Source of the DNA: a virus
IMG/VR virus record: IMGVR_UViG_3300050821_007139
Span: 27,469-91,468 of that record
DNA length: 64,000 nucleotides
Direction: 5' to 3' (one strand)
Position 1 is the stretch's first letter; each line of letters opens with the position of its first letter. Positions 87 to 56,439 of the stretch are shown in pieces. Below the pieces are notes generated by a model that saw nothing but the letters and a program-made list of their open reading frames with translations, was not told the origin of the DNA and searched no databases. Made by a program: the position numbers and the translations under genes.

Positions 87-1259
87 ATGCGAAGAGTCAG
101 CTTACTCTTACTTATTGTATCGCTTGCTACGACACTGATAGGGTTGTTGGTTTCGCTGCCAAATCGCGCAAATATGCTTTTTATGCCGTCAGGGTCAGGT
201 GGTGGGATTAGTCCAGATGGATCTTTTATTCAAGCTCCGGCAACTGGAGTCACGGGCGCTGCGGCGGGATCATTAAGGACCGTATATGGTACTTTCTCAT
301 TCGGGGATTTATACGCGCCTGTCCCGCATTATGGTGGCGGACAGCTTTACATCCCGTTGCTAAACGGCGTGCAGATGGAGCCGGGGCAGACGTTCGTATG
401 GGCGCAGTTCTTTTATGTCGGGTACGGCGGGAACGCTTTTGCAATGGTTACGGGTGATCAGCTACAAGCATCGTGGAGCAATAGTTCGTGGAACGGTGAT
501 AATGGTGGCACAGGGCCGGGACCATTTACCGGGTTTCCAGGCTTTGGCGGGGCTAATCAGATACCCGTTGGGACGCCGACCCCACCAACATTGCCGACAG
601 CTTGGGCCGGTCCTTACACACCATCAGCAGATGGTACAGCGATCTCAGGTGGAACAGGAACCTTAACCTCAGCACGGGGAGATGGTGGGATATGGACTTT
701 TGGTGCTGCTAGCGGCGGCGGATATATCATGCAGCGCCAGGGTATCACCGTATCGACGCCCAATTCAGGCTCGCTCACGCCTTATATCGTCACCGATATG
801 CAAATAAGCGCGTTTGGCTCGTTATTTTTTAAGACGGTAGATACAGTGTGGCACGTATGGAGCGGTCATCAGGCGAACGCCTCGACGGGGCCGCCCGGTA
901 CGGTGCCGATTCCAGTGGCGGTTAACTTCACGCCAAATGGATCGCTACCGCATGTGACGGTTGGCTCGGCGGATGGAACATTCGTCGCAGGCGTCGTGAC
1001 CACTATGAGTGATGGGGGCAGTTCTGTCGGCACGCTTTCTATCGGCCTCGACTTTAACACTGGTACGCGATTGTTGCGTAACTGGAATAGCGCCGATCCC
1101 TGTCCGTCTAGCTGTTCGGCAAATACGACGATAGTTGTGTGCGGCGTTGGCACTATAGGCACGGGGCTGGGATGCGTCGGCACTTATAATGGATCGAGTT
1201 CTCCGGTGACTGTAACGCAAAATGGAGCTTCGATCGTGTCAAAGATTAACGCGCAATGA
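87..1259 (+). CDS. Gly/Thr/Ser-rich fibre/spike-like protein with N-terminal signal/TM segment
   Basis: 390 aa ORF; MRR plus hydrophobic leader; G/T/S-rich beta-type composition with C-terminal Cys; late-region context. Confidence 0.55.
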   Translation: MRRVSLLLLIVSLATTLIGLLVSLPNRANMLFMPSGSGGGISPDGSFIQAPATGVTGAAAGSLRTVYGTFSFGDLYAPVPHYGGGQLYIPLLNGVQMEPGQTFVWAQFFYVGYGGNAFAMVTGDQLQASWSNSSWNGDNGGTGPGPFTGFPGFGGANQIPVGTPTPPTLPTAWAGPYTPSADGTAISGGTGTLTSARGDGGIWTFGAASGGGYIMQRQGITVSTPNSGSLTPYIVTDMQISAFGSLFFKTVDTVWHVWSGHQANASTGPPGTVPIPVAVNFTPNGSLPHVTVGSADGTFVAGVVTTMSDGGSSVGTLSIGLDFNTGTRLLRNWNSADPCPSSCSANTTIVVCGVGTIGTGLGCVGTYNGSSSPVTVTQNGASIVSKINAQ

Positions 1260-1409
1260 CCTAATGAGGATCTCCCTCGACTATCAGACGGGTAGCGAGC
1301 ATAAGCGCATGCGGCTTTGCCTGAGCTTCTATGGCAACGGCTGGCGCCGGAGCATCCCCGTCTGGTTTTGGACCAAATCGTTTTTCGTGTGAGGGAGTGA
1401 CCACACCTT

Positions 1410-1637
1410 ATGGGCTCGCTAAGTCTCGCTCATTGGCTGGTTGTTTTCGCGATCGTCACATTTCTATTCGGGGCTGGCAAAATCCCCCGACTTATGAGCG
1501 ACGCGGCGAAGGGTGTAAAAATTTGGAAGAAAGAAATTCACGCTCCGCTCGAAGATGTTGTTAGCAACGTGAACGAAACATCTGCAGAGGTAAGAGCACT
1601 TAATCCGTTACCCACAATTAAAAAGCTTGGATTATGA
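1410..1637 (+). CDS. tatA: Twin-arginine translocase TatA/TatE family subunit
   Basis: [41 protein letters not shown] matches the alphaproteobacterial TatA pattern (MGS..W..V...LFG.GKIP.LM.D.AKG.K.FK); GAGGGAG upstream. Confidence 0.9.
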
Positions 1638-1810
1638 TAATTCGCGCGTTTGTATGGATCTTAATATTACTGCTTGTAGCTCCGGCTTTCGCTAAGCCAA
1701 AACATGGTGGCGGCGGAGGCGGTGGGGCGCCGTCGAATTTTATACTGAATGACGCAGGAACTGCGATTCTCACCAATGACGCTGGCACACAGAGGTTAAC
1801 TCCGCCATGA
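1634..1810 (+). CDS. Small signal-peptide protein (58 aa, not in ORF track)
   Basis: Hand translation [58 protein letters not shown]; ATGA overlaps with both neighbours. Confidence 0.7.
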
Positions 1811-2760
1811 AACGATATCTTTGGTTTCTTTTAGTTTTTATATTTCCTGCATCGTCTATGGCCGATGTAACTTTTAGCTCGACTCGGGCGTATCAATCAG
1901 TATCGCTAACTGGCAGCGCATTTATTCCAAATGTTCTGCTTGGCTCAAACTTGACCCTAACTCTCGTTCACGGAACTTGTCCGTGTACATTGAATAATAT
2001 GACCAATATTTATCCTGGTCAGTTCGGTGTAGTTCATATTATAAATAGCTCTAGTGGTAGCGAGATTCTTACCCTATCAGGTAGTCAATATTCGTTGACT
2101 GTAACGCCTCCTTTTACACCAGATCCAGCATCTGAAAACGATTGGTTTTATACAGTCAACGCGGATAGCAAGGTATTATTTACATCAGCGGCATTACCAC
2201 CTTCGATCTCTAACACACAGGCGAATTTGCTCTCCGGCGCCGACGGAATGACAAGTGGCTGGACTGCACAAAACGCGACGCTTGCCACGGGCGCGACATG
2301 TACTAGCCCAATTGGCGGCACAAATACCTGTGCTTTATTGACTGAAGATACGACTACAAATACGCATTTCGCGTTTCAAAACACAACGCTACCGACATCC
2401 ACAAATACCGCGAGCGTGTTTGCCAAGATAAATTCCGGCACACGTTTTGTAGAGTTTCGAATAGCTGACAATTCTTTTGTCAATGTTGCTAGTGAGATAT
2501 TCGATCCGGTAACGTGCTCGGATACGATATCAGGTACTGGTGCTACCACGATTGGAACGGCGGTAATTATCGGTCATGGGACCATAGCGCGCTCAAACGG
2601 GTTTTGTGAGGGATGGATACAGGCGAATTTAGGCGGCGCTGTTCCGGTATTTGAGAATATCCAATTAGCAACACCGGCTGGTGATAATTATCTTGGAACG
2701 GGGCAGAGTAATTTATTGTGGCGTCCTGCAGTGAGGAATTGTGTATGCTCACCACCATGA
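1807..2760 (+). CDS. Fibre/head-spike-like protein with signal peptide
   Basis: Leader [19 protein letters not shown]; NLL...W...SPIGGTNTCALLTEDT motif typical of phage spike/fibre domains; paralogous to the C-terminal half of the next ORF. Confidence 0.6.
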   Translation: MKRYLWFLLVFIFPASSMADVTFSSTRAYQSVSLTGSAFIPNVLLGSNLTLTLVHGTCPCTLNNMTNIYPGQFGVVHIINSSSGSEILTLSGSQYSLTVTPPFTPDPASENDWFYTVNADSKVLFTSAALPPSISNTQANLLSGADGMTSGWTAQNATLATGATCTSPIGGTNTCALLTEDTTTNTHFAFQNTTLPTSTNTASVFAKINSGTRFVEFRIADNSFVNVASEIFDPVTCSDTISGTGATTIGTAVIIGHGTIARSNGFCEGWIQANLGGAVPVFENIQLATPAGDNYLGTGQSNLLWRPAVRNCVCSPP

Positions 2761-5012
2761 AACGAATTATTCTTACACTTGCTATTGCGATGGCGAGTGC
2801 ATTTCCGGCGCTTGCCCAAAATCAGGGAACTACTAGGCTTTTTCCTCCGATCGATGACTTGAGCCTGGTGAATCATCAGCCCTGGGCCTGCACTCAACTT
2901 ACTGCTGGCTGTGCGTTTAACGTAATCACGCCAAATCCAGGTATTGATCAGAGTGCCCAGATACAGGCTGCGCTTAATGGGTCGAAAACTTTGCCGGTAA
3001 TGTTAGTTGGCGGTCCATTCATTTCTTGCACACAGCTCCAGGTTCCCAACTATGGAACCTTTTTAAGCTATAATACCCTTGCTTATGATCCATTTTTTGG
3101 GACAGAAGCAAATACTTACCTGTCATGCAATAGTACATTTCATGGCACTAGTTTTGTTGCCTTTACTGGGTTACATGGCGGGTTGATTCGAGATATCGCT
3201 ATTGATGATAATTATACGCATCAAACAACTTTTGTGGGATCAATTTCGGGAACAACACTTTCTGTCGCTTCAATTACATCGAGCAATCTATCTCCAACGA
3301 TTACGGTCGGCCAAAGTTTGCAGGACGCGGCAGGTCATATTGCGATGACGACGCAGATAACCGCACTTGGTACTTGTGGAAATCCCGTTGTTCCGCCTTG
3401 TACTTTTTCTGTGTGGCCGTCACAGACAGTTGCAAGCGAAACTATGGGTGCTACAGTACACTGCTTTGAAAACATCCATAATGCTTCGTTCACCACTGCC
3501 TACGATATTCAAGGTGTCCGCTGTACGGGGGATGGATATCATGTTGTTGCCGATGGTAATCAGCCGGGTGGGCAGGGAATTGGTGGCGCTATCATCCGTC
3601 CATTAATTGGTGGCGCCCATACATATCTATCACTAAATGTTGGCGCTGGATTACGTGTCGATCAGGTAAATAACGGATTTGCCTCGGATCTTTCAGTGCA
3701 ATGCTGTCTCAATGCAGCAAGCAACTCGAATAACGGATTCTTCGGTCAATCAGTCGGGGATATTATACTGGCTGGGACAACTGGTCAATATGACAACCTT
3801 CGGACAGAGCAAGATGGAGCGTGTGGAGTTGTATTGCTTAATAGTGGCTACTTAACTCTTTCTAATTTACACGTTGACTCAAACTCATGCGTTGTTAAGG
3901 CGTTTAATTCATCGCTCAGTTTGATAGGTGGAGATGCGTTTAATAGGTTTACTGGGGTCACGGCGATTCAATTATTCAACTCCACTATGACTATGCAAGG
4001 ATTTTTTCTAGGCCCCGGATATTCATCTTCGATCCAAGCTGACGCCACGTCACATTTCTCCGGTTGGTTCGGCGGTACTAACCCTGGAATATCTTTTGCC
4101 GACCCCACAAGCGAACTTGTAGTGGGCCCAGGATTAATAAATTCAGTCGGCGGCAACCCGCCAGCTACCGTAACGCTTACCGGAGCCGCTTTTGCTGCAC
4201 CCGATTTATTACGCTCGGCCAACTCTATATTTGCCTTAAATCATGCGGGTTGTGCAGGTGGAACCGGCGGACATTGCTCTGTTCCGAACCCGACTTTTTT
4301 CACTAAGGGCACGAATGGCGTTTTTGAAATTCAGCAAAGTCTTACCGGCAATGATACAATTACTTGGGGTTCTGCATATGTTAATGCGCCAACACTCAGT
4401 ACGGGAGCTGGTGCGGTAGATTATGTACCGTGGTATGTAAATTCAGTCGGTCAGGTAGTGCTCGAAGCGCCTAATCAGAATCGGCTTGTTACAACTCCTG
4501 TTCCGGCCCAGCCTAACATTGTCACGCTACCATTGAGTTTTGCTGGTGGCGTATGGGGCGGTGGAACGCCTACGGCAGGTCAACTCGATCCAGAAGGCGG
4601 CACTACAGCAGTATTATTTACCGAAGATTCCAGCACCGGTTATCATGGCATATCAACTAATGTTACAGGTGCTGCTGGCACTTATACCGCCTCGTTCTTC
4701 TTCAAAGTTGGCGCTACCGGGGCGACGCGTTATGCAAACCTTCAGATCAATTCGACTACGACTAATGACCAGGTACAGTATCAGGTCAATCCCTGTAATA
4801 ATACAGGAGCGAGTGGCGGAGAAATAGTTGCAAGCGGGTGCATCATGTCACCAAATGGATATGGGCGGGTGTATTTGACTGTGGCAGCGCCGAGTGCATT
4901 ATCAAGCGTCATATTCTTTATGGGTGATTATAGTAATTATACCTATACGGGCGACGGCGTTTCTAATGGTTATTTCTGGGGGCCAATTATGCGTGCTGGG
5001 AATGCGCCATAA
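2757..5012 (+). CDS. Tailspike-like beta-helix protein with signal peptide and C-terminal spike domain
   Basis: Probable start ATG 2757 (ATGA overlap); MKRIILTLAIAMASAFPALAQ leader; DQSAQIQAALN beta-helix cap motif; C-terminal DPEGGTTAVLFTEDS...H domain. Confidence 0.65.
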   Translation: MKRIILTLAIAMASAFPALAQNQGTTRLFPPIDDLSLVNHQPWACTQLTAGCAFNVITPNPGIDQSAQIQAALNGSKTLPVMLVGGPFISCTQLQVPNYGTFLSYNTLAYDPFFGTEANTYLSCNSTFHGTSFVAFTGLHGGLIRDIAIDDNYTHQTTFVGSISGTTLSVASITSSNLSPTITVGQSLQDAAGHIAMTTQITALGTCGNPVVPPCTFSVWPSQTVASETMGATVHCFENIHNASFTTAYDIQGVRCTGDGYHVVADGNQPGGQGIGGAIIRPLIGGAHTYLSLNVGAGLRVDQVNNGFASDLSVQCCLNAASNSNNGFFGQSVGDIILAGTTGQYDNLRTEQDGACGVVLLNSGYLTLSNLHVDSNSCVVKAFNSSLSLIGGDAFNRFTGVTAIQLFNSTMTMQGFFLGPGYSSSIQADATSHFSGWFGGTNPGISFADPTSELVVGPGLINSVGGNPPATVTLTGAAFAAPDLLRSANSIFALNHAGCAGGTGGHCSVPNPTFFTKGTNGVFEIQQSLTGNDTITWGSAYVNAPTLSTGAGAVDYVPWYVNSVGQVVLEAPNQNRLVTTPVPAQPNIVTLPLSFAGGVWGGGTPTAGQLDPEGGTTAVLFTEDSSTGYHGISTNVTGAAGTYTASFFFKVGATGATRYANLQINSTTTNDQVQYQVNPCNNTGASGGEIVASGCIMSPNGYGRVYLTVAAPSALSSVIFFMGDYSNYTYTGDGVSNGYFWGPIMRAGNAP

Positions 5013-5058
5013 ATGAGCCTTAAGTGATATATTTGTTAGTTGGACATGGAAGATTCTA

Positions 5059-5292: not shown

Positions 5293-5325
5293 GTGTAAAT
5301 AATGAGCGACGAGCGAGAATTCTAA

Positions 5326-6123
5326 GTGGCTACAGATGATAACGGCATCTCCGAGTTAAGAAATGCGACTGATGAACTTAAACGCGTTATTGACTTAGTA
5401 CGGGACCGCTCCTCTATATGGACGCTCCCGCCTCAGTCGTCGGTGGGATTACCTATAGGTTCAGATAACTGGAATTTTACTACATTTGAGAAATATATTA
5501 ACCAGCGCTTTGGCGATCTTTCGTTACAGTTGCGCGAGCGCTATGAAGCGCAACAGACTGGCGTTATTGCTGCTTTGGCCGCTGCCGAGAAAGCGGTTAA
5601 CGCAGCGTTGATCGCCGCTGAGAAGGCAGTTGATAAAGCAGAAGGTGCCCAGCAGCTTCGTAACGAAGCGCAAAATGAGTTTCGTAAATCACTTTCCGAT
5701 CTTTCAGGATTGATGTGGACTAGTAAAGAAGGCTTGGCAGCGGTTGATTCAGTACGACGCGAGCTTAACGCCCTAGTAACAAATGCGGAAAATCGTATCG
5801 GCGTGATTGAAAAGTCTATTGCTGATAAGTGGAATTCTAAGGATGGCCAGTCAGCGGTAGATTCGGCGCGCCGTGAGAGGGTTGAAAGCTTTAGTCTTTT
5901 GGAAAAACGCACCGGAATATTAGAAACTGGTTACGCGAATCTTCAAGGGCGCATTTGGGCTGTGAGCGCATCATTTGCAATTATAGTTGTCATTGTTGAG
6001 ATTGCTATGCATTTCATACCTTCTTCTGTTTCTCCTACACCCATCCCTTCTATGTATAATAGTACGCCATCATCTCAGTGGCCGACGGCGGTTCCAACCG
6101 CACCCGGTGGTCCACAAAAATGA
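5326..6123 (+). CDS. Coiled-coil membrane protein adjacent to the endolysin
   Basis: AALAAAEKAV repeats, ..NEFR.. motif and a single C-terminal TM helix; upstream of the lysin. Confidence 0.55.
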   Translation: MATDDNGISELRNATDELKRVIDLVRDRSSIWTLPPQSSVGLPIGSDNWNFTTFEKYINQRFGDLSLQLRERYEAQQTGVIAALAAAEKAVNAALIAAEKAVDKAEGAQQLRNEAQNEFRKSLSDLSGLMWTSKEGLAAVDSVRRELNALVTNAENRIGVIEKSIADKWNSKDGQSAVDSARRERVESFSLLEKRTGILETGYANLQGRIWAVSASFAIIVVIVEIAMHFIPSSVSPTPIPSMYNSTPSSQWPTAVPTAPGGPQK

Positions 6124-6221: not shown

Positions 6222-6225
6222 AATT

Positions 6226-6867
6226 ATGCCCACACTTCCTTATCTTCCTAAAGTTACAACCGATACAGTAATCGATATAAGTCATTATGAAAAGATTAGT
6301 CAAGATTTTACACAAGTTGCAAAATCAGGCATCGTTGCAGTAATTATGAAGGCCACTCAAGGTGTTAACTTTGTCGATCCGACATTTCTTGAACGTGTAA
6401 GAGAGGCTAAAGCAGCCGGATTATTAGTCGGCGCTTACCATTTCTTAGATGGATCTAATCCGGCCGAACAAATAGCGCACTTTTTAACGGTTGCAGTAAG
6501 CGAAGGTGGAGTGGAATGGCTCGCGCTCGATTGGGAACCTTATCCAAATTCGCAAGCAACGGCAATGCAAGCGGCTACAGCAGCAGCGAGTATAGAAGCA
6601 GTACAAGATGTGTGGCCGACGTTATATACTATTCGTAGTATGCTTAATGGACCAAATAAGACACTCTTAAATTGTCCCCTATGGCTAGCTGAGTATGGCT
6701 CGAGACCAATACCGCCTCCAGGATTTACGGCTTGGAAGCTTTGGCAACATACGGATGGCCAAGTAGGAAGCAGTGTTAATCCCGTTCCTGGTATCGGGCC
6801 GTGCGATAGAAGTAAATTCGCTGGTACAGTAAGTGAGCTTAAAGCTTGGTGGGCGAACCCGGTTTAA
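6226..6867 (+). CDS. GH25 muramidase endolysin
   Basis: DISHY, KATQG, GAYHF, LDWE, WLAEY and LWQHT motifs of GH25. Confidence 0.92.
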   Translation: MPTLPYLPKVTTDTVIDISHYEKISQDFTQVAKSGIVAVIMKATQGVNFVDPTFLERVREAKAAGLLVGAYHFLDGSNPAEQIAHFLTVAVSEGGVEWLALDWEPYPNSQATAMQAATAAASIEAVQDVWPTLYTIRSMLNGPNKTLLNCPLWLAEYGSRPIPPPGFTAWKLWQHTDGQVGSSVNPVPGIGPCDRSKFAGTVSELKAWWANPV

Positions 6868-6884: not shown

Positions 6885-7109
6885 ATGAAATTGATCATGT
6901 TGGCGTTTCTCGGCATTTTGATGTACGCAACGACGGCGCAAGCCGCTAATTGCCGATGGACATACAATGGCTATGTATGCGCTCCGGGCTGGATGTGGCA
7001 GGATGGTCGCGAATGGAGCGAGTATGAGTGGCGCGAGCAGCACCGGCATCACGAGCGCGAGCGCGAGGGTGATTGGTCCCGTCATTATCACTACGATGAA
7101 AGGCATTAA
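6885..7109 (+). CDS. Small secreted protein with Trp/His/Arg/Glu-rich tail
   Basis: Start re-placed at ATG 6885 after AAAGGA; MKLIMLAFLGILMYATTAQA signal peptide; one Cys pair. Confidence 0.65.
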   Translation: MKLIMLAFLGILMYATTAQAANCRWTYNGYVCAPGWMWQDGREWSEYEWREQHRHHEREREGDWSRHYHYDERH

Positions 7110-8639: not shown

Positions 8640-8983
8640 CTAAGATCATAACCCGAGTCATCTCGACGTTCGACACAAGTGGAAATGCGACATTGGTGAT
8701 TCCGAATCACGCCGAGAGCGTATCGCTAAAATTCTACGAGAATCCGCCGGACGATATTGGACAGCAGATTGCGGTAATCTTACTATTGGATGATCCGCCT
8801 ATCGTAGCTGGGACACACGAGCGTAAGTTTGTAATCGTACCAGACGGCCAGCCTGTGCCGGTAGAGTTTAAGAAGTATGTAGCTACTTTTCCTTACGGGC
8901 CGAATAAGATATTGGTTCATTGTATCGAAGTAGGGATACAGGAGATGGGAAGTTTTAATCCTGATACAGCAGTGATTTCATGA
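8636..8983 (+). CDS. Conserved phage hypothetical protein with C-terminal ExGxFNP motif
   Basis: Coupled on both sides; R.F.I...G...P...YV.T....VH..E pattern seen in small phage proteins. Confidence 0.6.
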   Translation: MTKIITRVISTFDTSGNATLVIPNHAESVSLKFYENPPDDIGQQIAVILLLDDPPIVAGTHERKFVIVPDGQPVPVEFKKYVATFPYGPNKILVHCIEVGIQEMGSFNPDTAVIS

Positions 8984-9489
8984 TGCGTTTAATCGCGGGC
9001 CTAGCTATACTAATCATCTCGTATATTCCAGTTTCGGCACAGATCACTAGCCTTTCGCCAGATTTGATAGTGAATTGTCCTAATGGAGCGCTCCCTTGCA
9101 CCATTGCTTCTCGCGCGCCTTTAGTTACTCATGGAGAGCAAAGTCTTAGTCTTGATCAAACCTTTATAGGAATGACTGTGGTGAGATCCTGCGCACCAGC
9201 GACTTGCCTGACAGGGATGAAAGACACTGTTGTTGATCCTTCAGTAATCGGTAAGAATAACTCCTTTGGCGTATGCACCGGCGCTGGATGGGATACCATA
9301 AGTGCAGTGACGCCTGTAATAAATGGCGCCAAATGGATATCGTTAACTCAGTGGCAATGCGCTGATTTCTTTTCGGACGGAACGAATTACCTGGTTGTAT
9401 TAAGTTGGCAGGCGGGAAATAATATGCAAAGGTGTCCGACAGGGCAACATATGACTTCGGCAGCGCCTTTCAGGTGCGGGCCGCCATAA
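8980..9489 (+). CDS. Cys-rich signal-peptide protein with fibre-type domain
   Basis: MMRLIAGLAILIISYIPVSAQ leader; ING...L.Q.Q....SDGTNY motif shared with the 50567, 52036 and 52630 ORFs. Confidence 0.6.
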   Translation: MMRLIAGLAILIISYIPVSAQITSLSPDLIVNCPNGALPCTIASRAPLVTHGEQSLSLDQTFIGMTVVRSCAPATCLTGMKDTVVDPSVIGKNNSFGVCTGAGWDTISAVTPVINGAKWISLTQWQCADFFSDGTNYLVVLSWQAGNNMQRCPTGQHMTSAAPFRCGPP

Positions 9490-9939: not shown

Positions 9940-11055
9940 ATGAGCATAATTACAACACAATCTATGCATTCTTATCTTAAATACCCAAGCGCCGACAATA
10001 TCTTAGTTGATATGCATGGGAATGATTTTCCTTGGCGAGTGCCCCAGCTTTGCGCTTCTTATAATTGGCCTACAAATGCGCCAGGTGGCGGAGTTATAGG
10101 TATAGTCGAATTAGGAGGCGCCTGGATTTGGAATGATATGGGGAAGTTCTTCACCGGCTTAAATCAGCCGGTTCCTAAAATTGGCGATTTCTCTGTTGAT
10201 GGAGCGATGAATAATGGAGATATCACAGACCCTGCTTCAGCAGAAGTAACGCTAGATATACAGATTGCTGGAGCATCTTATTTCGCAGCGACTGGAAAGC
10301 CAGCGATAATAAGGGTATATTGGGCCGGAAATACCGTCAATGCAATCTCGCAGTCTATCACGAGAGCAGCTGCTGACGGGTGTGATACGTGCTCGATATC
10401 TTGGGGCGCTGATGAGGCTAATTGGGGAAATGCTGCAGCAATGCAACTTGAAGCCGCTGCCGCTGCAGCAGTTGGAGCTGGGATGATAGTATTCGCCGCT
10501 GCCGGCGATAATGACTCTAGCGATGGCGGGCCGACTGCCGCTAATGTAGATCTTCCAGCATCGGCCCCACACGTTATTGGATGCGGAGGAACAACTAGAC
10601 CGCATAGCCCTAGTGCGGTTAAACCTGAAATAGTATGGAATCAATCGCCCGGTAACGCTAATGGCGAAGGTACGGGCGGCGGATTTTCTACTATCTTTCC
10701 TGTCTCACCTTGGATGGCAGGGGCGCCGTCTGGCCCAGGCAGGATGGTCCCTGATTTAGCCGCTAATGCAGATCCAAATACTGGCTATCATGTAACTCTT
10801 GGCGGCCGAGATGTTATTTTTGGCGGCACGTCGGCAGTAGCGCCTCTATATGCCGGATTATTCGCCTCGTTCGGCCTCAAGCTTGGATTTGTCGCACCCA
10901 AACTTTGGGCGAACCAGCTAGCGTTTAATGATATTACCAAGGGCGACAATGGCCAGTTTCGGGCGCTTGTGGGGCCAGACGCTGTGACTGGCTTGGGATC
11001 GCCTCGAGGAGCTCGCCTATCTGATCTATTCGCGCTCCGTCTATATATGAGGTAA
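9940..11055 (+). CDS. S53 (sedolisin/kumamolisin) peptidase, catalytic domain only
   Basis: EVTLD (Glu/Asp), SISWG, AAGDNDS (oxyanion Asp), GGTSAVAP (Ser) and NDITKGDN Ca-binding site. Confidence 0.92.
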   Translation: MSIITTQSMHSYLKYPSADNILVDMHGNDFPWRVPQLCASYNWPTNAPGGGVIGIVELGGAWIWNDMGKFFTGLNQPVPKIGDFSVDGAMNNGDITDPASAEVTLDIQIAGASYFAATGKPAIIRVYWAGNTVNAISQSITRAAADGCDTCSISWGADEANWGNAAAMQLEAAAAAAVGAGMIVFAAAGDNDSSDGGPTAANVDLPASAPHVIGCGGTTRPHSPSAVKPEIVWNQSPGNANGEGTGGGFSTIFPVSPWMAGAPSGPGRMVPDLAANADPNTGYHVTLGGRDVIFGGTSAVAPLYAGLFASFGLKLGFVAPKLWANQLAFNDITKGDNGQFRALVGPDAVTGLGSPRGARLSDLFALRLYMR

Positions 11056-11545: not shown

Positions 11546-11737
11546 TTAAATATTTGTCTCTTTAAGCTTAGCTTTGTAAGCTTGTTTTGCAGCTTCACGA
11601 GCTTTTGCTCTACGAAGAATTTGTTTGGCTCTTTCTACTACCATCCAATGGAGGTCACCCCAAATTGTGATTAATACTCCTATGAATACTCCTAGGCAAA
11701 AAATTCTAAAAGCCCAACTATTAAGTATGTCTGTCAT
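11546..11737 (-). CDS. Small single-TM protein with basic tail
   Basis: TM helix followed by a charged helix; GAGG/AAGG upstream; overlaps the start of the + strand lipoprotein. Confidence 0.5.
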   Translation of the reverse strand: MTDILNSWAFRIFCLGVFIGVLITIWGDLHWMVVERAKQILRRAKAREAAKQAYKAKLKETNI

Positions 11738-12563
11738 AGCCTTATTTCTTTCCTCTTGTTCTGGATCTTTAACTGCAACACCGCCAGCACAACCTACGCC
11801 AGAGGCTATTCAGGCTTTGAATATCAGACTATTAGCTATTTCTTCCGATCCAATAATGACTTGGCAAATAGGAAATTATTCTGTTCGGTCGGCTTGTCAT
11901 GCTTATCTTAATGCTATGGCGGCGCGAAGTGCCAATATTAATCTTGCATCTGGCTCCCTTGGTCTTGCTGGGCCGGCAGCTGCAGGGTTTTTAGTAGCCG
12001 GATCAAATCCTATGGGAGCGGCTGCTGCAGGAGCTATAGCGGCTCTTGGGCAAACATTCTTGAATCTATTTAATTCTAGCGGCTCAATTCCTTATACTGC
12101 TGAAACATCTGGCATCATCCAAGCCGCCCTTGATGCTTATGAGGGTGGAGTTAATCTTTCTCCACCCTCAAGTATTCCCCAAGCAATTTCTTATATTGAT
12201 GATCTCTGGTGGCAATGCTCAGCTGGTGGATATGCAATATTAGTTAGTAAGGCTATTAGTACGGCTAATATTGGCGTTCAGATGAATGGAATGTTTTCGT
12301 TCCGTTCACTTACACCGACAGGTCGGCCGGTGATTACTGTAAATCCACCGCCAACTACTACAAATTCAACATTCGAAGAAATGCCACTACCGCGACCCAG
12401 ATTGCACCGTAAAATAGCACCGCCACTAGCACGGCAACAAATAGCGTCACCAGAGGCGGCCAATTTACCTGCCAATTTACCTGACGATCTTGATAAGCTG
12501 GCTCGTCTGCGTTGGCTAAAGGCAACTTGGACTTGTGTTCGGATGTTAGATGGAACATGTTAG
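11683..12563 (+). CDS. Putative lipoprotein (start uncertain: 11625, 11683 or 11728)
   Basis: Lipobox-like LFLSSC after a hydrophobic stretch; Gly/Ala hydrophobic hairpin; paired Cys. Confidence 0.6.
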
Positions 12564-12590: not shown

Positions 12591-12965
12591 TTATTCCCAG
12601 CTGACTTTACAAACTATCACTACGTTGTCTCCACAAATACCGGGAGTTACAGCTGCACATGGAGATATTTGAAATACGATCGGAGCTTGACTCAAGTCGC
12701 TTGCACTGATATTTCCCCAATTTGCTGCACCGCCAGCAGTCGTTAGATCGACGCCGTAAACAATTCCGTCATCTGAGCCGACTCCATATCTCCCGGTCGC
12801 AGGGGTACTCGCTGTTCCTGGCACCGCCGTATAAAACCAGCCGCAATCTGGATGATTTGGTCCATTTGCCGTTGATGAACCATGTAATACTGCATTACCC
12901 GATCCGGCATTAGCTACACTTGTGAGCAACAAAAATGCCGATGTAAACGCTAACAGCTTATTCAT
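12591..12965 (-). CDS. Small secreted Cys-containing protein
   Basis: MNKLLAFTSAFLLLTSVANA leader; AAGGAG SD. Confidence 0.7.
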   Translation of the reverse strand: MNKLLAFTSAFLLLTSVANAGSGNAVLHGSSTANGPNHPDCGWFYTAVPGTASTPATGRYGVGSDDGIVYGVDLTTAGGAANWGNISASDLSQAPIVFQISPCAAVTPGICGDNVVIVCKVSWE

Positions 12966-12980: not shown

Positions 12981-13604
12981 TTAAGGTCCTGGATAAAAGT
13001 GCAGTCCGCAACTACACTGACCCGTACACATATTTACTAGATATGCACATGCAGGGCCAGATAACCCACTTGGATTCCCTAGCAGAAATACTCCCTCTAA
13101 AGTTCCTACAAAACTATAATGCCCTCCTCCATCGCATATTCCTCCAGGTGATAGATTATTCAACTCTGCTCGTGGGCCGAATGATACTCCAGATACTCCT
13201 ATTGCTTGTACTAGTCTTACATGCGTTCCTAATATAGCTTGTGCTCCATTCATTGCCTTTAAATCGCAATCATTCGCGCTTAAACCCGTAAGCTTCTGCA
13301 ACCCTGCACCAAATGCAGGATTTCCTATATTTGGCACACAAGGAAATCCTCTTCCTCCTGGCACTTGACTACCCATTCTTGGGTTGCACGGACCTTGAGT
13401 CTGAAATCCAACCCAAACATTGTTATGTTCCGCTACATTGTCATTGCTAAAATTGTTTAGCAATCTTCCAATTATTAATTGCGCCGTGATATCTACCACC
13501 ACACCCGCAACAATATCGCTTATTGCTGGTTGCCCTGCTTTTGCTGGCCAACCATGAACCAATAACCATCCTAATATTAACGCTCCTATTCCTATTGATC
13601 TCAT
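12981..13604 (-). CDS. Secreted Cys/Gly-rich protein
   Basis: Signal peptide ending PAKA; 8 Cys; AAGG SD. Confidence 0.65.
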   Translation of the reverse strand: MRSIGIGALILGWLLVHGWPAKAGQPAISDIVAGVVVDITAQLIIGRLLNNFSNDNVAEHNNVWVGFQTQGPCNPRMGSQVPGGRGFPCVPNIGNPAFGAGLQKLTGLSANDCDLKAMNGAQAILGTHVRLVQAIGVSGVSFGPRAELNNLSPGGICDGGGHYSFVGTLEGVFLLGNPSGLSGPACAYLVNMCTGQCSCGLHFYPGP

Positions 13605-16845: not shown

Positions 16846-17095
16846 CCGCTGCTTCTGATAATGCGTGTTTTGTTTCGATAGAATGAGGTAATATATCGCG
16901 AAGGCGGAGAACTATTAATTCTGCTTGATCCCTCATTTGTTCCACAGTTTTGGGCGGAGTAAAATGGGCCTTCCAAAGTGGATGGTTTGGATGCCATGCT
17001 AAACCACATACTTCTTGAGATAAGGGTTTTATAGATTTTGGCATATAGAAATTTTCTTTAGCTTTAATATGGTGATACATAAGTAGTATTGCCAT
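16814..17095 (-). CDS. Hypothetical protein
   Basis: ORF in operon; probable start at MPKS. Confidence 0.45.
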   Translation of the reverse strand: MAILLMYHHIKAKENFYMPKSIKPLSQEVCGLAWHPNHPLWKAHFTPPKTVEQMRDQAELIVLRLRDILPHSIETKHALSEAADAIHHLQFGK

Positions 17096-17306
17096 GTGGG
17101 TTTAATACTATATATCCACCATTATTATCGGGAAATGCGTAAGAAGTTCCTTTAGAATTTTGGATTATATAATTTGGTGGGTAAGCTGGAGCGATAGTTC
17201 TATTTGGCATTTGAAGTGGGTAGAACTGTAAAGGAGGAATTTGTGTATATTGCGCATGAGCAGAAAAAGAAATAAATACACAAGCTAAAATTATAATTGT
17301 TTTCAT
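17064..17306 (-). CDS. Small secreted protein
   Basis: MKTIIILACVFISFSAHAQ signal peptide; PPLQFYPL resembles QPLPFYPL in ORF 46878. Confidence 0.65.
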   Translation of the reverse strand: MKTIIILACVFISFSAHAQYTQIPPLQFYPLQMPNRTIAPAYPPNYIIQNSKGTSYAFPDNNGGYIVLNPHGNTTYVSPY

Positions 17307-27825: not shown

Positions 27826-28206
27826 TTATCTGACGCCAATAGCATTGATTATTCCGACGATTTGTAAGGTTCCATCGGGTCCATTTCCGAAACAAGGCAC
27901 CATTGGGGCCGAATAAGGAAATACAGGTGTGTAGTCGAATACAGTTGCTACTTCGATAGGATCGTTAGCGAGGTATTTTGTATGTATTGTGGTCCAACGC
28001 ATTTGTGCGTCAGAGTCATGGACGTTAATGGCGAAGGTTTTACCGTTTACTACAAATTTTGCGCATAGCGGCCCGGCGGGTAAGAAGTCGCTTGGGACCC
28101 CTGCAGCACTCCAGGTTGCGTTGGATCTTATTGGCGGCGACTGTGCTAAAGTTGCATTGGTGATTGCGATGAGACTTGTAGTGGCGAATATGATTATTTT
28201 AAACAT
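27826..28206 (-). CDS. Small secreted protein, paralog of 28462-28812
   Basis: Signal peptide; AGPLCAK..V.G...AI; AAGGAG SD. Confidence 0.7.
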   Translation of the reverse strand: MFKIIIFATTSLIAITNATLAQSPPIRSNATWSAAGVPSDFLPAGPLCAKFVVNGKTFAINVHDSDAQMRWTTIHTKYLANDPIEVATVFDYTPVFPYSAPMVPCFGNGPDGTLQIVGIINAIGVR

Positions 28207-28461: not shown

Positions 28462-28812
28462 TTAGTTTACGAAGTCTACTCCTGGGAGAAGTACACCCCC
28501 ATCGTTGCAAAGGACTGTATTGGTGCTGCCGGTGCCGAGGGCCGGATAGGTGTTGATTTGCATGGGGAGGCCGCTAAGGGCACGGAAATCCATCGTTTGG
28601 AGGCGTGCGAGAGCTTGTGCGGCTGGCGTATGGACCAAATCGACCGCGACCTGGACGCCACCAACGGTGCGCTTGGCGCAGAACGCCCCCGCTGTCGCCT
28701 TGCTAGGGTCATTGGTTCCCGAAGCGGTTACTACCGCCTGAGCCGATGCGTAATTGCTGCTAAGCAAAACGGCGCCAAAAGCGACTGCGATAGCGAGATT
28801 AATTTTAGACAT
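28462..28812 (-). CDS. Small secreted protein
   Basis: Signal peptide ending ASA; AGAFCAK..V.G...AV. Confidence 0.7.
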   Translation of the reverse strand: MSKINLAIAVAFGAVLLSSNYASAQAVVTASGTNDPSKATAGAFCAKRTVGGVQVAVDLVHTPAAQALARLQTMDFRALSGLPMQINTYPALGTGSTNTVLCNDGGVLLPGVDFVN

Positions 28813-46877: not shown

Positions 46878-47126
46878 ATGCGAATACCAGCCCTCATAGT
46901 TGTTGGCGCACTCGTTGCCTCTTGCGGGTCATTACCACAACTGGAAGATTACCCTTATCGCTCGTCTCAGATAGCAGTCATTAACGCCGCGCCAAGCTTT
47001 GCGCCTACGCAACCATTACCCTTCTATCCGCTATCATTGCCGACAGGATATAACTCTCGCTCGACTAACTTCACTTGCTTCTCATCCCGTCTTAGTGCTT
47101 CGATGGCATATACTAACTGCAATTGA
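46878..47126 (+). CDS. Small lipoprotein
   Basis: LVASC lipobox; C-terminal TC...YTNCN. Confidence 0.65.
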   Translation: MRIPALIVVGALVASCGSLPQLEDYPYRSSQIAVINAAPSFAPTQPLPFYPLSLPTGYNSRSTNFTCFSSRLSASMAYTNCN

Positions 47127-50325: not shown

Positions 50326-50329
50326 TTCT

Positions 50330-50548: not shown

Positions 50549-50566
50549 TTCAAGGAGCCACTTAAA

Positions 50567-50842: not shown

Positions 50843-50854
50843 GTTGGGCCCGGA

Positions 50855-51053: not shown

Positions 51054-51085
51054 GGTTTTAATTAAACCTTTATGGAACTTAAATC

Positions 51086-51388: not shown

Positions 51389-51399
51389 AGATCCTAGCT

Positions 51400-52032: not shown

Positions 52033-52035
52033 TAG

Positions 52036-52413
52036 GTGGCCAGTGAAAAAATCAGCGCAATGCCAGATGCGGGCGCGCTTACTGGTGCCGAACTTGTTCC
52101 CGTTGTTAGATTTGGTTCTCCAAATTTAAATCTTAGCACGACTGTAGCTGATATTGCCAATTCAGGGTCTTCTCTTGGTATAATTGAATACATCAATAAT
52201 ACTTCTGGTCTCCCTATAACATTCACTCTTCCATCAAGTCATGTTACAACTACAATCAAAGATGACGGATTTAATGCAACTTTATTCCATATTACTGTTG
52301 TAGACCCGGTGGGAAGCTTAATTGATAATAGCTCTAGCTTTGTTATTAACCAATCTGGGGCTGCTTTTACTTTTGTGTGGCAAAATGCGCGAAGCAAATG
52401 GAACGTATTTTAG
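52036..52413 (+). CDS. Fibre-type structural protein
   Basis: KISAMP.A..LTG.ELVP N-terminus plus TLP...IKD.G.NA...ITV...ID domain. Confidence 0.6.
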   Translation: MASEKISAMPDAGALTGAELVPVVRFGSPNLNLSTTVADIANSGSSLGIIEYINNTSGLPITFTLPSSHVTTTIKDDGFNATLFHITVVDPVGSLIDNSSSFVINQSGAAFTFVWQNARSKWNVF

Positions 52414-52691
52414 GTTTAAGTTTAGCTTTCAGTTTAATTATTGTCCACTTTTCTTATGCTGACGGGCCACAAGCTTGTAATGAGAAAGAAGATCCTGTTG
52501 TATGTATGCTTAAAGTCGAGCGTAATAATTCGCAAGATGAATTAGCTATTGCCCAAGGTACTATTATACGAACCTTGGATAAGGAGAAAGATCGTGCAGA
52601 GTATTGGAAGAAATGGGTGGAAGGGGATATTGAAAAGTCTGTCTGGTGGAATAGTTTCGTTCACGGTTTGCCTACTATATTCCGTAAGTAG
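52398..52691 (+). CDS. Signal-peptide protein
   Basis: MERILGLSLAFSLIIVHFSYA leader; Cys pair. Confidence 0.5.
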   Translation: MERILGLSLAFSLIIVHFSYADGPQACNEKEDPVVCMLKVERNNSQDELAIAQGTIIRTLDKEKDRAEYWKKWVEGDIEKSVWWNSFVHGLPTIFRK

Positions 52692-53322
52692 TTTTGCAGC
52701 TTATACAGGATCACCGCCGCTACTTGTAGCTAATGGTGGAACGGGTGCGCAAACATTTACTGCACATGGCGTGCTGTTAGGTGAAGGCACTAATCCGCTT
52801 GTTCCAACTGCAGTTGGCACGAACGGCCAAATGTTTCTTGGTGCTACTGCCGCTGATCCTGGGTGGCAGACAATGGGTGGCGATGCGACTCTAGGAACTA
52901 CAGGTACTTTGACTTTAGCTACCGTCAATGGTGCGGGCGGTAGTTGTACGCTTTGCAGTATTACCTCGAATGCTAAGGGATTAATTACTAGCTTTTCTAG
53001 TGGTGCGGCTACTATTCCAACACTTGCGACTGCCTCTGGTGCTTCGCCAATTACTATCACTGCAACTAATTTGCTTACTACGATTGTTTCTATGGGAACT
53101 CCTGCGGCATCAACAATCAATCTTCCTACTGCTGTCCAAACGGCCGGGTTCCGGCTGTGTGTTAAGGATGGAACTACGAATTTTGCTACAAATAATGCTA
53201 CGGTTAAAAGCCCAACTGCCGGCACAATTGATGGAGTTGCTGGTGCAACTGGTATAGTAATGAACCAAGCCCATCAAGAATTATGCTTCATCAGCGATGC
53301 TAGCAATTGGTTTATAGAATAA
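52630..53322 (+). CDS. Tail-fibre-like protein with signal peptide
   Basis: Probable TTG start 52630 after AAGGGG (MKSLSGGIVSFTVCLLYSVSSFA); VANGGTGA repeat; GDATL; NAKGLIT; C-terminal VKDG...IDG domain. Confidence 0.65.
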   Translation: MKSLSGGIVSFTVCLLYSVSSFAAYTGSPPLLVANGGTGAQTFTAHGVLLGEGTNPLVPTAVGTNGQMFLGATAADPGWQTMGGDATLGTTGTLTLATVNGAGGSCTLCSITSNAKGLITSFSSGAATIPTLATASGASPITITATNLLTTIVSMGTPAASTINLPTAVQTAGFRLCVKDGTTNFATNNATVKSPTAGTIDGVAGATGIVMNQAHQELCFISDASNWFIE

Positions 53323-53349
53323 TTTTCGTAATTCTTTAATTGCTACAAG

Positions 53350-53784
53350 ATGTCGCTAAATTTACGATGGGGACTTATTATTGGCGCTATTGTTTGTACT
53401 TTGTCATTATCAGTTCGTGCGGCTTATTTAGGAACTCCAACTTATATTATACCATGCGCCAATTGTTTATCTGGGACAGCAGATGTTACAACTACAACAT
53501 CAACAAGTCTTATTGCGGCGCCGGGAGCTAGTTTATTTATATATGTTACCCATATTAGTTGTTTTAACAGTAGTGTGACTAATACAACAGTAGTTCTACA
53601 AAATGGTAGTGCCGGGACAACTATTTGGAAAGGAATTGCATATGCGGGAAGTGGTTTTGTTGCTGACTTTTCCACTCCGCTTGGTGGATCGGTTAATATG
53701 ACTGCTAATACAGCACTCTTTTTTGCAGCAGGGACTGGCGTTACAACGTTAACCTGTAGTGCTGTTGGATATAAATCGTCTTAA
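53350..53784 (+). CDS. Signal-peptide structural-like protein
   Basis: Leader ending VRA; IAAPGA...YVT.I...N...ANTAL....GY. Confidence 0.6.
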   Translation: MSLNLRWGLIIGAIVCTLSLSVRAAYLGTPTYIIPCANCLSGTADVTTTTSTSLIAAPGASLFIYVTHISCFNSSVTNTTVVLQNGSAGTTIWKGIAYAGSGFVADFSTPLGGSVNMTANTALFFAAGTGVTTLTCSAVGYKSS

Positions 53785-53799
53785 TATGGAGATCAGGTT

Positions 53800-54156
53800 A
53801 TGAAAGGTTCAGTTACAGTATTTAGTGCTGCGACTTTGCTTATGATTGGTATTGCTGCGGCACAGGGTGCTTCAGTAAGTGGTAATCTATCAATTACAGT
53901 TCAACCTGGTGCTTTAGCACTAGTATTAAATCCTGCTACAGTTACGCTGACTTGTAATACAGCGGCCGGGACTCTAGTCAGCCAAGCGTCAACTACTGGT
54001 GGCGATGGAAACACGGTGACTTTTTCTATGACGGGGAACGTCACGGATTTTGCGATAAATTCTTCAACAGGTGCTATTACAGTAGTCGCCGGAGGTATTC
54101 ACCCCGCAGATTGTAATATGTCTTTTACAAATGTCGTTACTGCAACGCAACCATAA
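53800..54156 (+). CDS. Cadherin/Ig-like domain protein with signal peptide
   Basis: Leader ending AAA; TFS....DFAINSSTGAITV. Confidence 0.65.
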   Translation: MKGSVTVFSAATLLMIGIAAAQGASVSGNLSITVQPGALALVLNPATVTLTCNTAAGTLVSQASTTGGDGNTVTFSMTGNVTDFAINSSTGAITVVAGGIHPADCNMSFTNVVTATQP

Positions 54157-54166
54157 GATATTAATT

Positions 54167-55300
54167 ATGTATAGGCGCTTACATTTTTATGTAATCCCTC
54201 TGCTTGTATCTTTATGCTTTAATACACCTGCACATGCTGTAACGTATGTATTCTTTGCAACCGGAACAAATGCCAACTGGTGCCCTGGCGGCGCTACTAC
54301 TTGTTTTGGTGTTGGCGATACGATAACTGCGGAGTGTGTTGGGGGCGGCGGCGGAGGCGATGTCAATAGTAGCAGCACCAGTGGTTCAGGTGGCGGTGGC
54401 GCGGCCTACGCCCATACGGGAGCAACACCAGCAACAGTTGCCCAACGCACAGTTACATCTGGCGATATTGCTAATGGGATTCGATATACGGTCGGCCCTG
54501 GCGGCACGGGTGGTTCAACTGGAAGCGCAGGAACGGCAAGCACAGTTCTGGCTACAACTAGCACGTCTTTTGATACGACGATTTGCAATGCGGGCGGTGG
54601 CGGCGCAGGGTCAGTAACAGGGGCTGCTGGAACAGTTGGAACCTGCACGGGCTGCTCGGGATTTGCTGGCGGGGCCGCTGGTGGAGATGCTACAGGTTTT
54701 GGCGCGTCCGGAGGAGGCGGATCAGCTGGACCGCATGGAGTAGGTAAAAACGGTGGTATTGGTAATGCCGGAAGTGCTGTTGCCGGTTCCGGCGGGGGTG
54801 GAGGCGGCGCCGATGATACTTCCGCTACAGTCGGGAGTGCCGGTGCTAATGTTTCATCAAATATCGCTACGGGTGGGGCTGGAGGCGCTAATTCTGCTGG
54901 CTCAGGTGGCGGCGCTGGAGGTAACACAACAGGTGCGGGCGGCGCTGGTGGTTCAGGAACCAACGGTGGCGGCGGTGGCGGCGGTGGCGTAGGTTCCAGC
55001 ACAGGTATTAAAGGCGCTGGTGGTTCAGGCTCGGCTAGTAATTTGGATTGGGATGCTACACATGGAGTCAGCGGTGGCGGTGGAGGCGGGGCTGGAAATG
55101 CAGCTTCAGCTGTAACGGGTGGGGCTGGTGGAACGCCACCATGTTGTGGTGGTGGCGGAGGCGGGGGCGGTTCGGGAAATTTATCATCGATTGCTAATGG
55201 CGGGGCTGGCGGGGCCGGTGCTGCTGGCCTCATTATCTTCACCCGGACTTTAGCAGCAGCTGGTGTTCATCAACTTCTAATGCTCCATGTAGGAAACTAA
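54167..55300 (+). CDS. Glycine-rich fibre-like protein with signal peptide
   Basis: Probable start MYRRLHF...PAHA; ECVGGGGGG, YTVG.GG and GAAGLII glycine-rich domain motifs. Confidence 0.7.
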   Translation: MYRRLHFYVIPLLVSLCFNTPAHAVTYVFFATGTNANWCPGGATTCFGVGDTITAECVGGGGGGDVNSSSTSGSGGGGAAYAHTGATPATVAQRTVTSGDIANGIRYTVGPGGTGGSTGSAGTASTVLATTSTSFDTTICNAGGGGAGSVTGAAGTVGTCTGCSGFAGGAAGGDATGFGASGGGGSAGPHGVGKNGGIGNAGSAVAGSGGGGGGADDTSATVGSAGANVSSNIATGGAGGANSAGSGGGAGGNTTGAGGAGGSGTNGGGGGGGGVGSSTGIKGAGGSGSASNLDWDATHGVSGGGGGGAGNAASAVTGGAGGTPPCCGGGGGGGGSGNLSSIANGGAGGAGAAGLIIFTRTLAAAGVHQLLMLHVGN

Positions 55301-55305
55301 TTTCT

Positions 55306-56439
55306 ATGCGGTATGTAATAATATTATTATTTCTAATTTTGGTTGTCCTGGCTGGTGCTGCCGTTGCCGCTACGGTTCACGCTAATCTATTCATGACTGT
55401 GACGAGTGGGGGTGGGGGCGCATGCCCGAGGGGCAATAGCTTCGCGGATGGGTGTCCTGGCGCTCCGGTTCCGGCTACAGCTATTCAATATCCGAATATT
55501 CTAACGTCATATGGTGCTAACCGCCCGCCCTGGAATGTTGCGGGCGTCGATTACTATGTAGGGAAGCCGAATGATGGTCTAACACTAACAGATTGGCGAA
55601 CGATCCAGACGGACCCAAACTGGTCAAGTTGTGGTGGCGGGTGTTGGCGCTTCAACGGGACCACGCTTGTTATGGATCATTACGACTTCACGACGGGCAC
55701 GGCTGGTGAATGGAGCATATACACTACTAGTGCAGCCAGTATCACCATAACGAATAGCGTCATTGGCTGTAATGGCCCTACTGGCGGCTATGACGGAATT
55801 AACAGCCAGAGTAGTCCATTCGCCTTTGTATTTAAAAACAATACCGTCGATTTTACCAATTGTCAAGGACACGGTACTGGTATCGTCGGTATGGGTGGTC
55901 TCGGCTGCAGCGATTGTAGTATGGACTTCGAGTATAATTTTCTTAAATATATATATGCAGATCCATTTGGTATTGGCGGTACAATTACGAGTGTAATATA
56001 TAAGTACAACCTTATCGACACACCTGCGATATCCGATCCGACTTGCGGTAGTTGCATTCACATGAACAGTTTGAGCTTTCTTAACGGCCCATCGTATTCA
56101 AACGTCGTCGTAGCGTTCAATACCGTTTTCGCGAGTAAGAGTTACACGGGCGGCGAGTTCATGCAATTCTATTTCAATGCCGGCGGGACGGCTAATTCAC
56201 CAGTTCTCTCGAACAACACATTCCCATTCAGCGCTTGCGGATGTGTGTCGTATAATATTCACGGTACTGGAGGATATAGCCCAACCACCACGCTAGTTGG
56301 CGGTGGGACCAACAGCCAGAATTACTTTGATATTACCGGCAATGGCGGCTCGAATCCGTACTACCCAACTTCTATGATAGGTTGGACCAATACGGGTAAT
56401 ATAAATATGGTCACAGGTGCAACTATCACGCCGCCGTGA
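55306..56439 (+). CDS. Beta-helix-like protein with signal peptide
   Basis: Leader ending AVA; PPWNVAGVDYYVG; repeated YN/FN/NN rungs; many Cys. Confidence 0.65.
   Translation: MRYVIILLFLILVVLAGAAVAATVHANLFMTVTSGGGGACPRGNSFADGCPGAPVPATAIQYPNILTSYGANRPPWNVAGVDYYVGKPNDGLTLTDWRTIQTDPNWSSCGGGCWRFNGTTLVMDHYDFTTGTAGEWSIYTTSAASITITNSVIGCNGPTGGYDGINSQSSPFAFVFKNNTVDFTNCQGHGTGIVGMGGLGCSDCSMDFEYNFLKYIYADPFGIGGTITSVIYKYNLIDTPAISDPTCGSCIHMNSLSFLNGPSYSNVVVAFNTVFASKSYTGGEFMQFYFNAGGTANSPVLSNNTFPFSACGCVSYNIHGTGGYSPTTTLVGGGTNSQNYFDITGNGGSNPYYPTSMIGWTNTGNINMVTGATITPP

Follow-up and report, generated by a model that had tools for sequence, protein, structure and literature searches.

Could a tailed phage fold its host-recognition proteins outside the cytoplasm of the cell it infects? 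Textbook tailed-phage assembly is wholly cytoplasmic and known tailspikes fold in that compartment. The question is raised by a 64-kb stretch of phage DNA (the window), bases 27469-91468 of the 91,468-bp IMG/VR virus record IMGVR_UViG_3300050821_007139, in which proteins encoded in the tail-fibre region begin with apparent export leaders and a gene for TatA lies amongst them. A preliminary description of the window had listed 19 such leaders and proposed one system, in which the phage exports its appendage proteins for oxidative folding, adds them to particles or displays them on the infected cell, and supports the export with its own TatA. Export and oxidative folding of the leader proteins are strongly supported by the parity of cysteine counts, by the leaders of homologues, by mature N-termini that fall in register with leaderless forms and by the gain of a cysteine pair, and from these sequence patterns we infer translocation itself. 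The host-recognition gear of this phage very probably folds outside the cytoplasm, and its parts would then join the particle or be displayed on the cell. Below, genome coordinates refer to the whole record and window coordinates to the 64-kb stretch.

The record has direct terminal repeats, is rated complete and was found in two soil metagenome studies. By its predicted backbone genes (Table 1) it is a large short-tailed phage, and its host is probably a diderm proteobacterium. No close cultured phage was found: megablast gave no DNA match, and the best identity of the coat protein to cultured phages is 41%. By coat protein, at least 150 relatives are present in IMG/VR.

All 19 of the listed N-termini translate as described, 17 of them as Sec/signal-peptidase-I type leaders of 18–28 residues and two as lipoboxes. 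The criterion for a Sec leader was a basic n-region, an uncharged hydrophobic h-region of 8–18 residues and small residues at −3 and −1. The 17 open-reading frames, as well as three to four upstream of the window, fall under it, with a basic start, then an uncharged hydrophobic core, then a small-x-small end. Among them, the leader at window 52398 is weak and has a net-neutral start, whilst that at window 87, with a 21-residue core, could be a Sec leader, a Tat leader or a signal anchor. A lipobox was taken as [LVI][ASTVI][GAS]C closing a leader, and was found as L-S-S-C at window 11682 and V-A-S-C at window 46878. The former gene had been placed at 11683; its lipobox stands, and its true ATG lies at 11682. 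The leader at window 52630 also stands, on an open-reading frame whose start codon is TTG, at the same start position in close homologues. Six further leader genes lie just 5′ of the window in the same operon (genome 18051, 18570, 18824, 19318, 22429 and 23031), giving 25 leader-bearing genes of ~150. A home-made leader rule without alternative starts called 15 leaders in the genome, against a chance level of 0.98 on average and 4 at most over 50 composition-preserving shuffles. The rule called 1 of 70 internal control windows, and in the related phage G003 it called one leader where 0.78 were expected. The excess over chance in the present genome supports the reading of these N-termini as real export signals.

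The cysteine content of the mature parts points the same way. An even number of cysteines is found in 21 of the 22 cysteine-containing mature parts (binomial p 5.5e-6), compared with 32 of 58 other proteins of the same phage. The sole odd count belongs to a protein with a clear Tat leader (genome 22429), and a Tat substrate would already be folded before export.

Two fibre families, one with a docking (head-binding) domain and one with a GGTG motif, have both leader-bearing and leaderless members. Homologues had been expected to keep their leaders, and they do so in three homologues of the protein of 751 amino acids (aa) at window 2757, in 54 GGTG proteins and in 41 docking proteins, whilst 18 GGTG and 74 docking proteins are leaderless. 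The docking protein of the present phage (genome 18051) matches PDB entries 9vyg (e-value 1.7e-5; also 9vyh) and 7eeq (“tailspike head-binding domain”, 0.009), and its head-binding domain begins 3–6 residues past the predicted cleavage site. An exhaustive search with this domain gave 8354 relatives; the family statistics rest on 115 classified among the top 149 homologues. The position of a landmark in the domain is bimodal, with a canonical leader of ~20 residues in 41 of the 115, and its median distance from the cleavage site in leader forms is 32 residues, against 31 from the N-terminus in leaderless ones. A CxxC within the docking domain, replacing the usual L-x-G-G, is present in 26 of the 41 leader forms and in 2 of the 74 leaderless forms (Fisher 4e-13), though one of the latter is in fact leader-bearing, its start having been mis-called. 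Even and odd cysteine counts stand at 33:7 with a leader and 26:32 without. Leaders are clustered on the docking-domain tree (21 changes vs. 35 in shuffles), where the branching is too weak to give a number of gains. All 27 docking-domain matches in species-representative genomes are leaderless, which shows that there is no cultured example, not that such forms are absent, and the leader-bearing docking family has one match in cultured phages, also leaderless.

The genomic setting of the docking protein is that of a tailspike. A head-binding domain is encoded just once in this phage (G000) and just once in each of two complete 60-kb relatives, every time in a leader-bearing gene. In one relative the leader-bearing docking gene lies between the tail-tube and ejection-protein genes, and in others the docking gene follows a conserved 440-aa gene after the ejection-protein genes, alongside further leader genes. 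Podovirus tailspikes (P22 gp9 type; PDB 7eeq, 9vyg/9vyh) have the same docking domain at the mature N-terminus and the same gene slot beside tail-tube and ejection-protein genes, and spike addition in P22 is a late, self-contained assembly step. What sets the present family apart is a cleavable signal peptide together with the CxxC pair, found here and in about one third of the closest metagenomic homologues.

In the GGTG family the two forms can be compared residue by residue. The 54 leader-bearing homologues have a cleavage junction of A followed by A(Y/F), which 46 of them place 12 residues before GGTG, whilst the 18 leaderless homologues start M-A-Y-K-R, 13 residues before GGTG, a register in which cleavage would recreate the N-terminus of the cytoplasmic forms after removal of Met. 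Ala at −1 and +1 is invariant across 47 aligned sequences of the family, and even and odd cysteine counts are 53:1 with a leader and 6:9 without. The model of the 230-aa member encoded here has a predicted local distance difference test (pLDDT) score of 76 overall and >90 over the C-terminal 120 residues. Structure prediction with Foldseek, a check proposed in advance, matched this C-terminal domain to virion-type adaptors, namely the Klebsiella phage KP1 baseplate, the CBA120 TSP4 adaptor region and T4 gp9/gp10, at fold level only (E 5e-5 to 3e-3, root-mean-square deviation ~3 Å over ~100 columns), and the modelled C-terminus appears to adopt a T4 gp9/gp10-like adaptor fold. Relatedness inflates the family statistics, yet the pattern is seen in both families, which are unrelated to each other, and again among the mutually unrelated proteins of the present genome.

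A third virion-type domain is found in the 751-aa protein, of which residues 561–748 match PDB 6tb9, the Rcc01080 head-spike fibre of RcGTA (chain residues 67–256, E 5.7e-13). The likeness covers the C-terminal domain of this protein and its 317-aa paralogue, whilst the 751-aa protein differs in having a leader, 16 cysteines and an unrelated N-terminal part of 540 residues. It has four database homologues, and all three full-length ones keep diverged leaders ending A-x-A before Q; no relatives were found in IMG/VR, and its AlphaFold model (five sequences) has a pLDDT of 44, too poor for a fold search. The fibre-type mature domains of the preliminary description are borne out by this match, by the gp9/gp10-like fold and by the head-binding domain. 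A beta-helix body in the protein at window 55306 is possible and is a lead only (Atlas feature score 0.94, structure template-modelling score 0.62; Pfam without a match), and the cadherin-like protein at 53800 has no family match. The ten largest leader proteins were scanned against Pfam and PHROGs, and nine more from the window and upstream against Pfam; no family emerged, the sole match being one weak PHROG of unknown function.

The phage TatA named in the preliminary description is genuine. It scores 27.3 bits against PF02416 (E 2e-7; curated cut-off 21), its open-reading frame is intact and is served by the ribosome site GAGGGAG. It resembles bacterial TatA in this score and in its membrane helix, FG hinge and amphipathic helix, and differs in sitting in a fibre operon without tatB or tatC; a search of the whole phage genome found no TatC. 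The best database match has 59% identity. TatA proteins of 220 of 401 Alphaproteobacteria match it, at best with 65% over 43 residues, and as this was the only class sampled no host is named. No relatives were found in IMG/VR, and a metagenome scan yielded only one high-GC bacterial tatA. Such distance from all the database sequences recovered suggests that the gene has resided in phage genomes and was not freshly captured. An identical TatA protein is also recorded on a 91,512-bp contig, which points to a near-twin genome assembled elsewhere.

What might this TatA serve? As a Tat leader we counted an S/T-R-R-x-F-L-K-like motif together with an h-region that is mildly hydrophobic and at least 12 residues long, and with a c-region that is basic. 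The leader at genome 22429 has all three (T-R-R-R-L-I, with R in the c-region), that at genome 23031 has R-R-R-D-L-L-K but a short h-region broken by K, and those at window 87 and 54167 have RR with Sec-like cores, so that one Tat leader is clear and up to three more are possibly present. The tatA gene lies 5.9 kb 3′ of the start of the Tat-leader genes, and the natural reading, with one firm substrate, is that its product would help to export folded fibre proteins. The proposal that TatA supports export is plausible from its place near RR-leader genes, and less so from the single strict Tat leader and the lack of tatC. In the IMG/VR relative G009, the gene after the leader-bearing docking tailspike (L176 11181-12047) begins D-R-R-S-F-V-A-S-L-L, a Tat-type motif; tatA was not found in that record, which is estimated to be about half complete. 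No paper on a phage-encoded tatA turned up in full-text searches, and in a 2026 review of Tat, phages appear only through the PhiX174 lysis protein E, which hijacks SlyD, with phage shock protein and T4 antiholin RI confined to its reference list.

How could these parts work together? In the explanation that we favour, and which as a whole (export, periplasmic maturation, particle joining and help from tatA) we hold tentatively, at a little under an even chance, some 25 proteins would be made as precursors with working export signals, mostly of the Sec/signal-peptidase-I type, with two lipoproteins and one clear Tat leader. The precursors would cross the inner membrane of a diderm host, be cut at A-x-A and be disulfide-bonded in its periplasm. 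The late-operon subset, encoded from genome 18051 to window 12563 and in the six-gene block at window 52398-56439, would be the receptor-binding gear: the adaptor that docks on the tail, fibres, bodies resembling lectins or spikes, and small partner proteins. Its members would meet DNA-filled, spike-less particles only when the inner membrane is breached by the holin, or later, once the cell has lysed. In podoviruses, spikes are usually added at the end of assembly, in a step that needs no cell. As the GH25 endolysin is leaderless, lysis needs large holin holes, which would let the two compartments mix. The phage TatA would add pore-forming subunits to the host TatBC receptor, allowing late export of the folded Tat-leader fibre proteins encoded upstream. 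The explanation is supported by the statistics of leaders, cleavage register, cysteine pairing and virion-type domains and by the identity of tatA, and from these we infer that the proteins are in fact exported, that they join particles and what tatA does. Joining to the particle is favoured by three observations: the sole docking gene of three complete genomes is leader-bearing, the mature N-termini fall in register with those of leaderless homologues, and leader-bearing proteins are recorded in the virions of the cultured phage phi18:3, described below. A wider proposition, which we regard as possible and put forward with some doubt, is that a sizeable group of lytic short-tailed phages, so far uncultured, assembles its receptor-binding apparatus periplasmically and adds it at the holin breach, with this phage having gone furthest (~20 late proteins plus tatA).

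Full-text searches for exported tail fibres yielded no paper, and going by these searches the maturation of tailspikes or fibres through leader-directed export would be a route undescribed for tailed phages. Partial likenesses exist. In the record of Cellulophaga phage phi18:3 (NC_021794), a cultured short-tailed phage, gp085-gp087 were found in virions by tandem mass spectrometry (MS/MS) and all three start with leaders, whilst nine other virion proteins detected by MS are leaderless; its host phylum is Bacteroidota, the sequences are unrelated with few cysteines, and the record is silent on leaders and cleavage. The pIII and pVIII proteins of the filamentous phage Ff have signal peptides, use host export and are joined outside the cytoplasm, but Ff particles are extruded without lysis, whereas the present phage is lytic and tailed, with a P22-like coat, terminase, portal and endolysin. 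The mosaic adhesive trimer fibres of Bdellovibrio are tailspike-like and trimeric, have secretion signals and are used outside the cytoplasm, but they are encoded by the bacterium and displayed on its own surface, with no virus particle to join.

Several points weigh against the explanation that we favour. The family cysteine-parity statistics tend to overstate independence because related sequences share cysteines, the leader calls come from a home-made rule, and the phage is uncultured and known from its genes alone. The docking tailspike of relative G001 is leaderless though its neighbours bear leaders, an arrangement which indicates that exported and cytoplasmic parts can coexist and that exported ones are not necessarily virion parts. 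Many of the leader proteins are small, without a recognisable fold, or encoded in the replication arm, and the concentration of fibres would drop sharply if joining came only after lysis. TatA alone cannot translocate, so TatC would have to come from the host, only one leader passes the strict Tat rule, and a search for tatA in nine relatives with leader-bearing fibres found none, although homologues had been expected to co-occur with it. These observations on Tat, and the sharing of a block with the endolysin gene, would also suit a tatA that is no export helper but a membrane-weakening lysis or timing factor, or a passenger gene from the host. We consider this unlikely, given an intact open-reading frame with a strong ribosome site, a position among and just 3′ of RR-leader genes, and a divergence that suggests phage residence over fresh host capture.

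The arrangement in G001 is also what would be seen if the proteins were exported and never joined the particle, and instead masked or destroyed receptors and surface polysaccharide on the infected cell's own envelope, blocking superinfection, keeping progeny off debris and helping release, with the fibre-like domains as recycled binding modules. Phages are known to export envelope-acting proteins (T5 Llp, lambda Bor), five leader proteins are encoded in the replication arm, the beta-helix-like body at 55306 has no docking domain, and the block also encodes a subtilase and the endolysin; we take this alternative seriously, whilst judging it less likely than not. It has to contend with the sole head-binding domain of three complete genomes sitting on a leader-bearing protein, which in the present phage is a bare adaptor without a binding body and as such hard to account for as an envelope-acting factor, with leader genes in the canonical tail-fibre slot, and with cleavage that gives exactly the N-terminus of leaderless virion homologues. 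In another account the hydrophobic N-termini would be unused for export, and assembly would be cytoplasmic with the leader kept, otherwise removed or bypassed by internal starts. Such a possibility accords with the textbook rule that tailed-phage particles assemble in the cytoplasm and with an internal Met at residue 12 of the docking protein, but internal starts are no general feature, leaders of canonical form are kept in kind while sequence drifts, with Ala invariant on both sides of the cleavage site in the aligned GGTG proteins, and even cysteine counts and the CxxC gain go with the leader; we regard it as very improbable.

The proposal of a single 19-protein system did not hold, and the 19 are a mixed set. 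Five small proteins are encoded in the leftward replication arm and one lipoprotein (window 46878) outside the late blocks, and these six are probably envelope-acting and no part of the virion. The proteins at window 27826 and 28462 both have a conserved Cys-Ala-Lys set in a common motif region, and are candidate early factors that act on the envelope. The lipoprotein at 46878 resembles an o-spanin; this assignment was rejected because there is no inner-membrane partner, the 91-aa protein upstream having no membrane helix.

If the explanation that we favour is true, tailed-phage assembly would have a second compartment. Were docking adaptors and fibres to mature in the periplasm, host range, disulfide-based particle stability and the point at which particles become infectious would hinge on host Sec, Tat and Dsb and on the order of the lysis steps, and defence and counter-defence could operate in the periplasm. 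For use in diagnostics or engineering, receptor-binding proteins of this kind would have to be expressed by secretion instead of being folded in the cytoplasm. The two families that have both forms offer a clean natural experiment, and tatA in a phage would count as an auxiliary gene of a new kind. On a conservative reading, too, it is unusual for one sixth of the genes of a lytic phage to encode secreted proteins.

Table 1. Predicted features of the phage, with window or genome coordinates and, for one conserved gene, its copies in relatives.
Feature	Coordinates	Strand	Predicted properties
390-aa protein	window 87..1259	+	28-residue RR-containing, very hydrophobic leader; mature part Gly-rich, 4 Cys, start N-M-L-F-M-P..GGG
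tatA, 75 aa	window 1410..1637	+	N-terminal membrane helix, FG hinge, amphipathic helix
58-aa protein	window 1634..1810	+	Sec leader; mature 38 aa, start KPKHGGGG
317-aa protein	window 1807..2760	+	Sec leader, 8 Cys; paralogue of 751-aa C-terminal part (blastp 1.9e-13)
751-aa protein	window 2757..5012	+	Sec leader, 16 Cys; C-terminal domain related to RcGTA head-spike fibre Rcc01080
GH25 endolysin	window 6226..6867	+	PF01183 E 3.7e-32; leaderless
74-aa protein	window 6885..7109	+	Sec leader, 2 Cys; His/Glu/Arg-rich tail; immediately 3′ of endolysin gene
169-aa protein	window 8980..9489	+	Sec leader, 8 Cys
293-aa lipoprotein	window 11682..12563	+	Lipobox L-S-S-C, 4 further Cys; final gene of rightward fibre block
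124-aa protein	window 12591..12965	-	Sec leader, 4 Cys; end of leftward arm
207-aa protein	window 12981..13604	-	Sec leader, 8 Cys; adjoins ribonucleotide reductase gene
80-aa protein	window 17064..17306	-	Sec leader, Pro/Tyr-rich, 0 Cys; replication arm
126-aa protein	window 27826..28206	-	Sec leader, 2 Cys; replication arm
116-aa protein	window 28462..28812	-	Sec leader, 2 Cys; replication arm
82-aa Pro-rich lipoprotein	window 46878..47126	+	Lipobox V-A-S-C, 2 further Cys; apart from both late blocks
97-aa protein	window 52398..52691	+	Weak net-neutral leader, 2 Cys; one relative's homologue also leader-bearing
230-aa fibre/adaptor protein	window 52630..53322	+	Sec leader; mature start AY..VANGGTGA; 4 Cys; C-terminal T4 gp9/gp10- and CBA120 TSP4-like domain
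144-aa protein	window 53350..53784	+	Sec leader; mature start AYLGTP (like neighbour); 4 Cys
118-aa protein	window 53800..54156	+	Sec leader, 2 Cys; Ig-/cadherin-like in appearance, without family match
377-aa protein	window 54167..55300	+	Leader containing RR; mature part 34% Gly, 8 Cys
377-aa protein	window 55306..56439	+	Sec leader, 12 Cys; right-handed beta-helix body as lead
Large terminase	window 57426-58865
Portal	window 60872-63091
Replication arm		leftward	Ribonucleotide reductase, split DNA polymerase, primase
P22-like coat protein	genome 541-1740
Head-closure/tail-tube protein and ejection proteins	genome 6627-15585
168-aa protein	genome 18051		Leader, then N-terminal tailspike head-binding domain
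197-aa protein	genome 22429		Textbook Tat leader; just 5′ of tatA
1427-aa paralogue-containing protein	genome 23031		Begins R-R-R-D-L-L-K; just 5′ of tatA
Conserved 430-470-aa gene	genome 16641-18050; L128 19040-20335; L130 8555-9880; L158 6944-8284; L135 6076-7398

The conserved 430-470-aa gene lies 3′ of the ejection-protein genes and usually just 5′ of the tailspike gene. Its N-terminus is ATP-grasp-like in appearance, a Pfam search gave no match, and it is present in relatives both with and without leaders. Within the fibre block, some otherwise different proteins have the same start tag after the predicted cleavage site: N-(L/M)-L-(M/F)-M-P..GGG is common to the proteins at genome 22429 and window 87, and (R/K)-P-K-H-G-G-G-G to those at genome 23031 and window 1634. 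These shared tags may be docking peptides uncovered by removal of the leader. Between the 1427-aa fibre gene and the open-reading frame at window 87 lies a 66-aa open-reading frame (window 1-64, genome 27332-27532) that by eye reads like a Phd/YefM-type antitoxin, with no toxin partner seen adjacent. The subtilase of the fibre block is leaderless (window 9940-11055; Peptidase_S8 E 1.4e-10) and could process fibre proteins or their partners. Directly 5′ of the endolysin gene, window 5326-6123 encodes a coiled-coil protein of 265 aa whose one membrane helix is C-terminal, and which may be a lysis or membrane-tethering factor.

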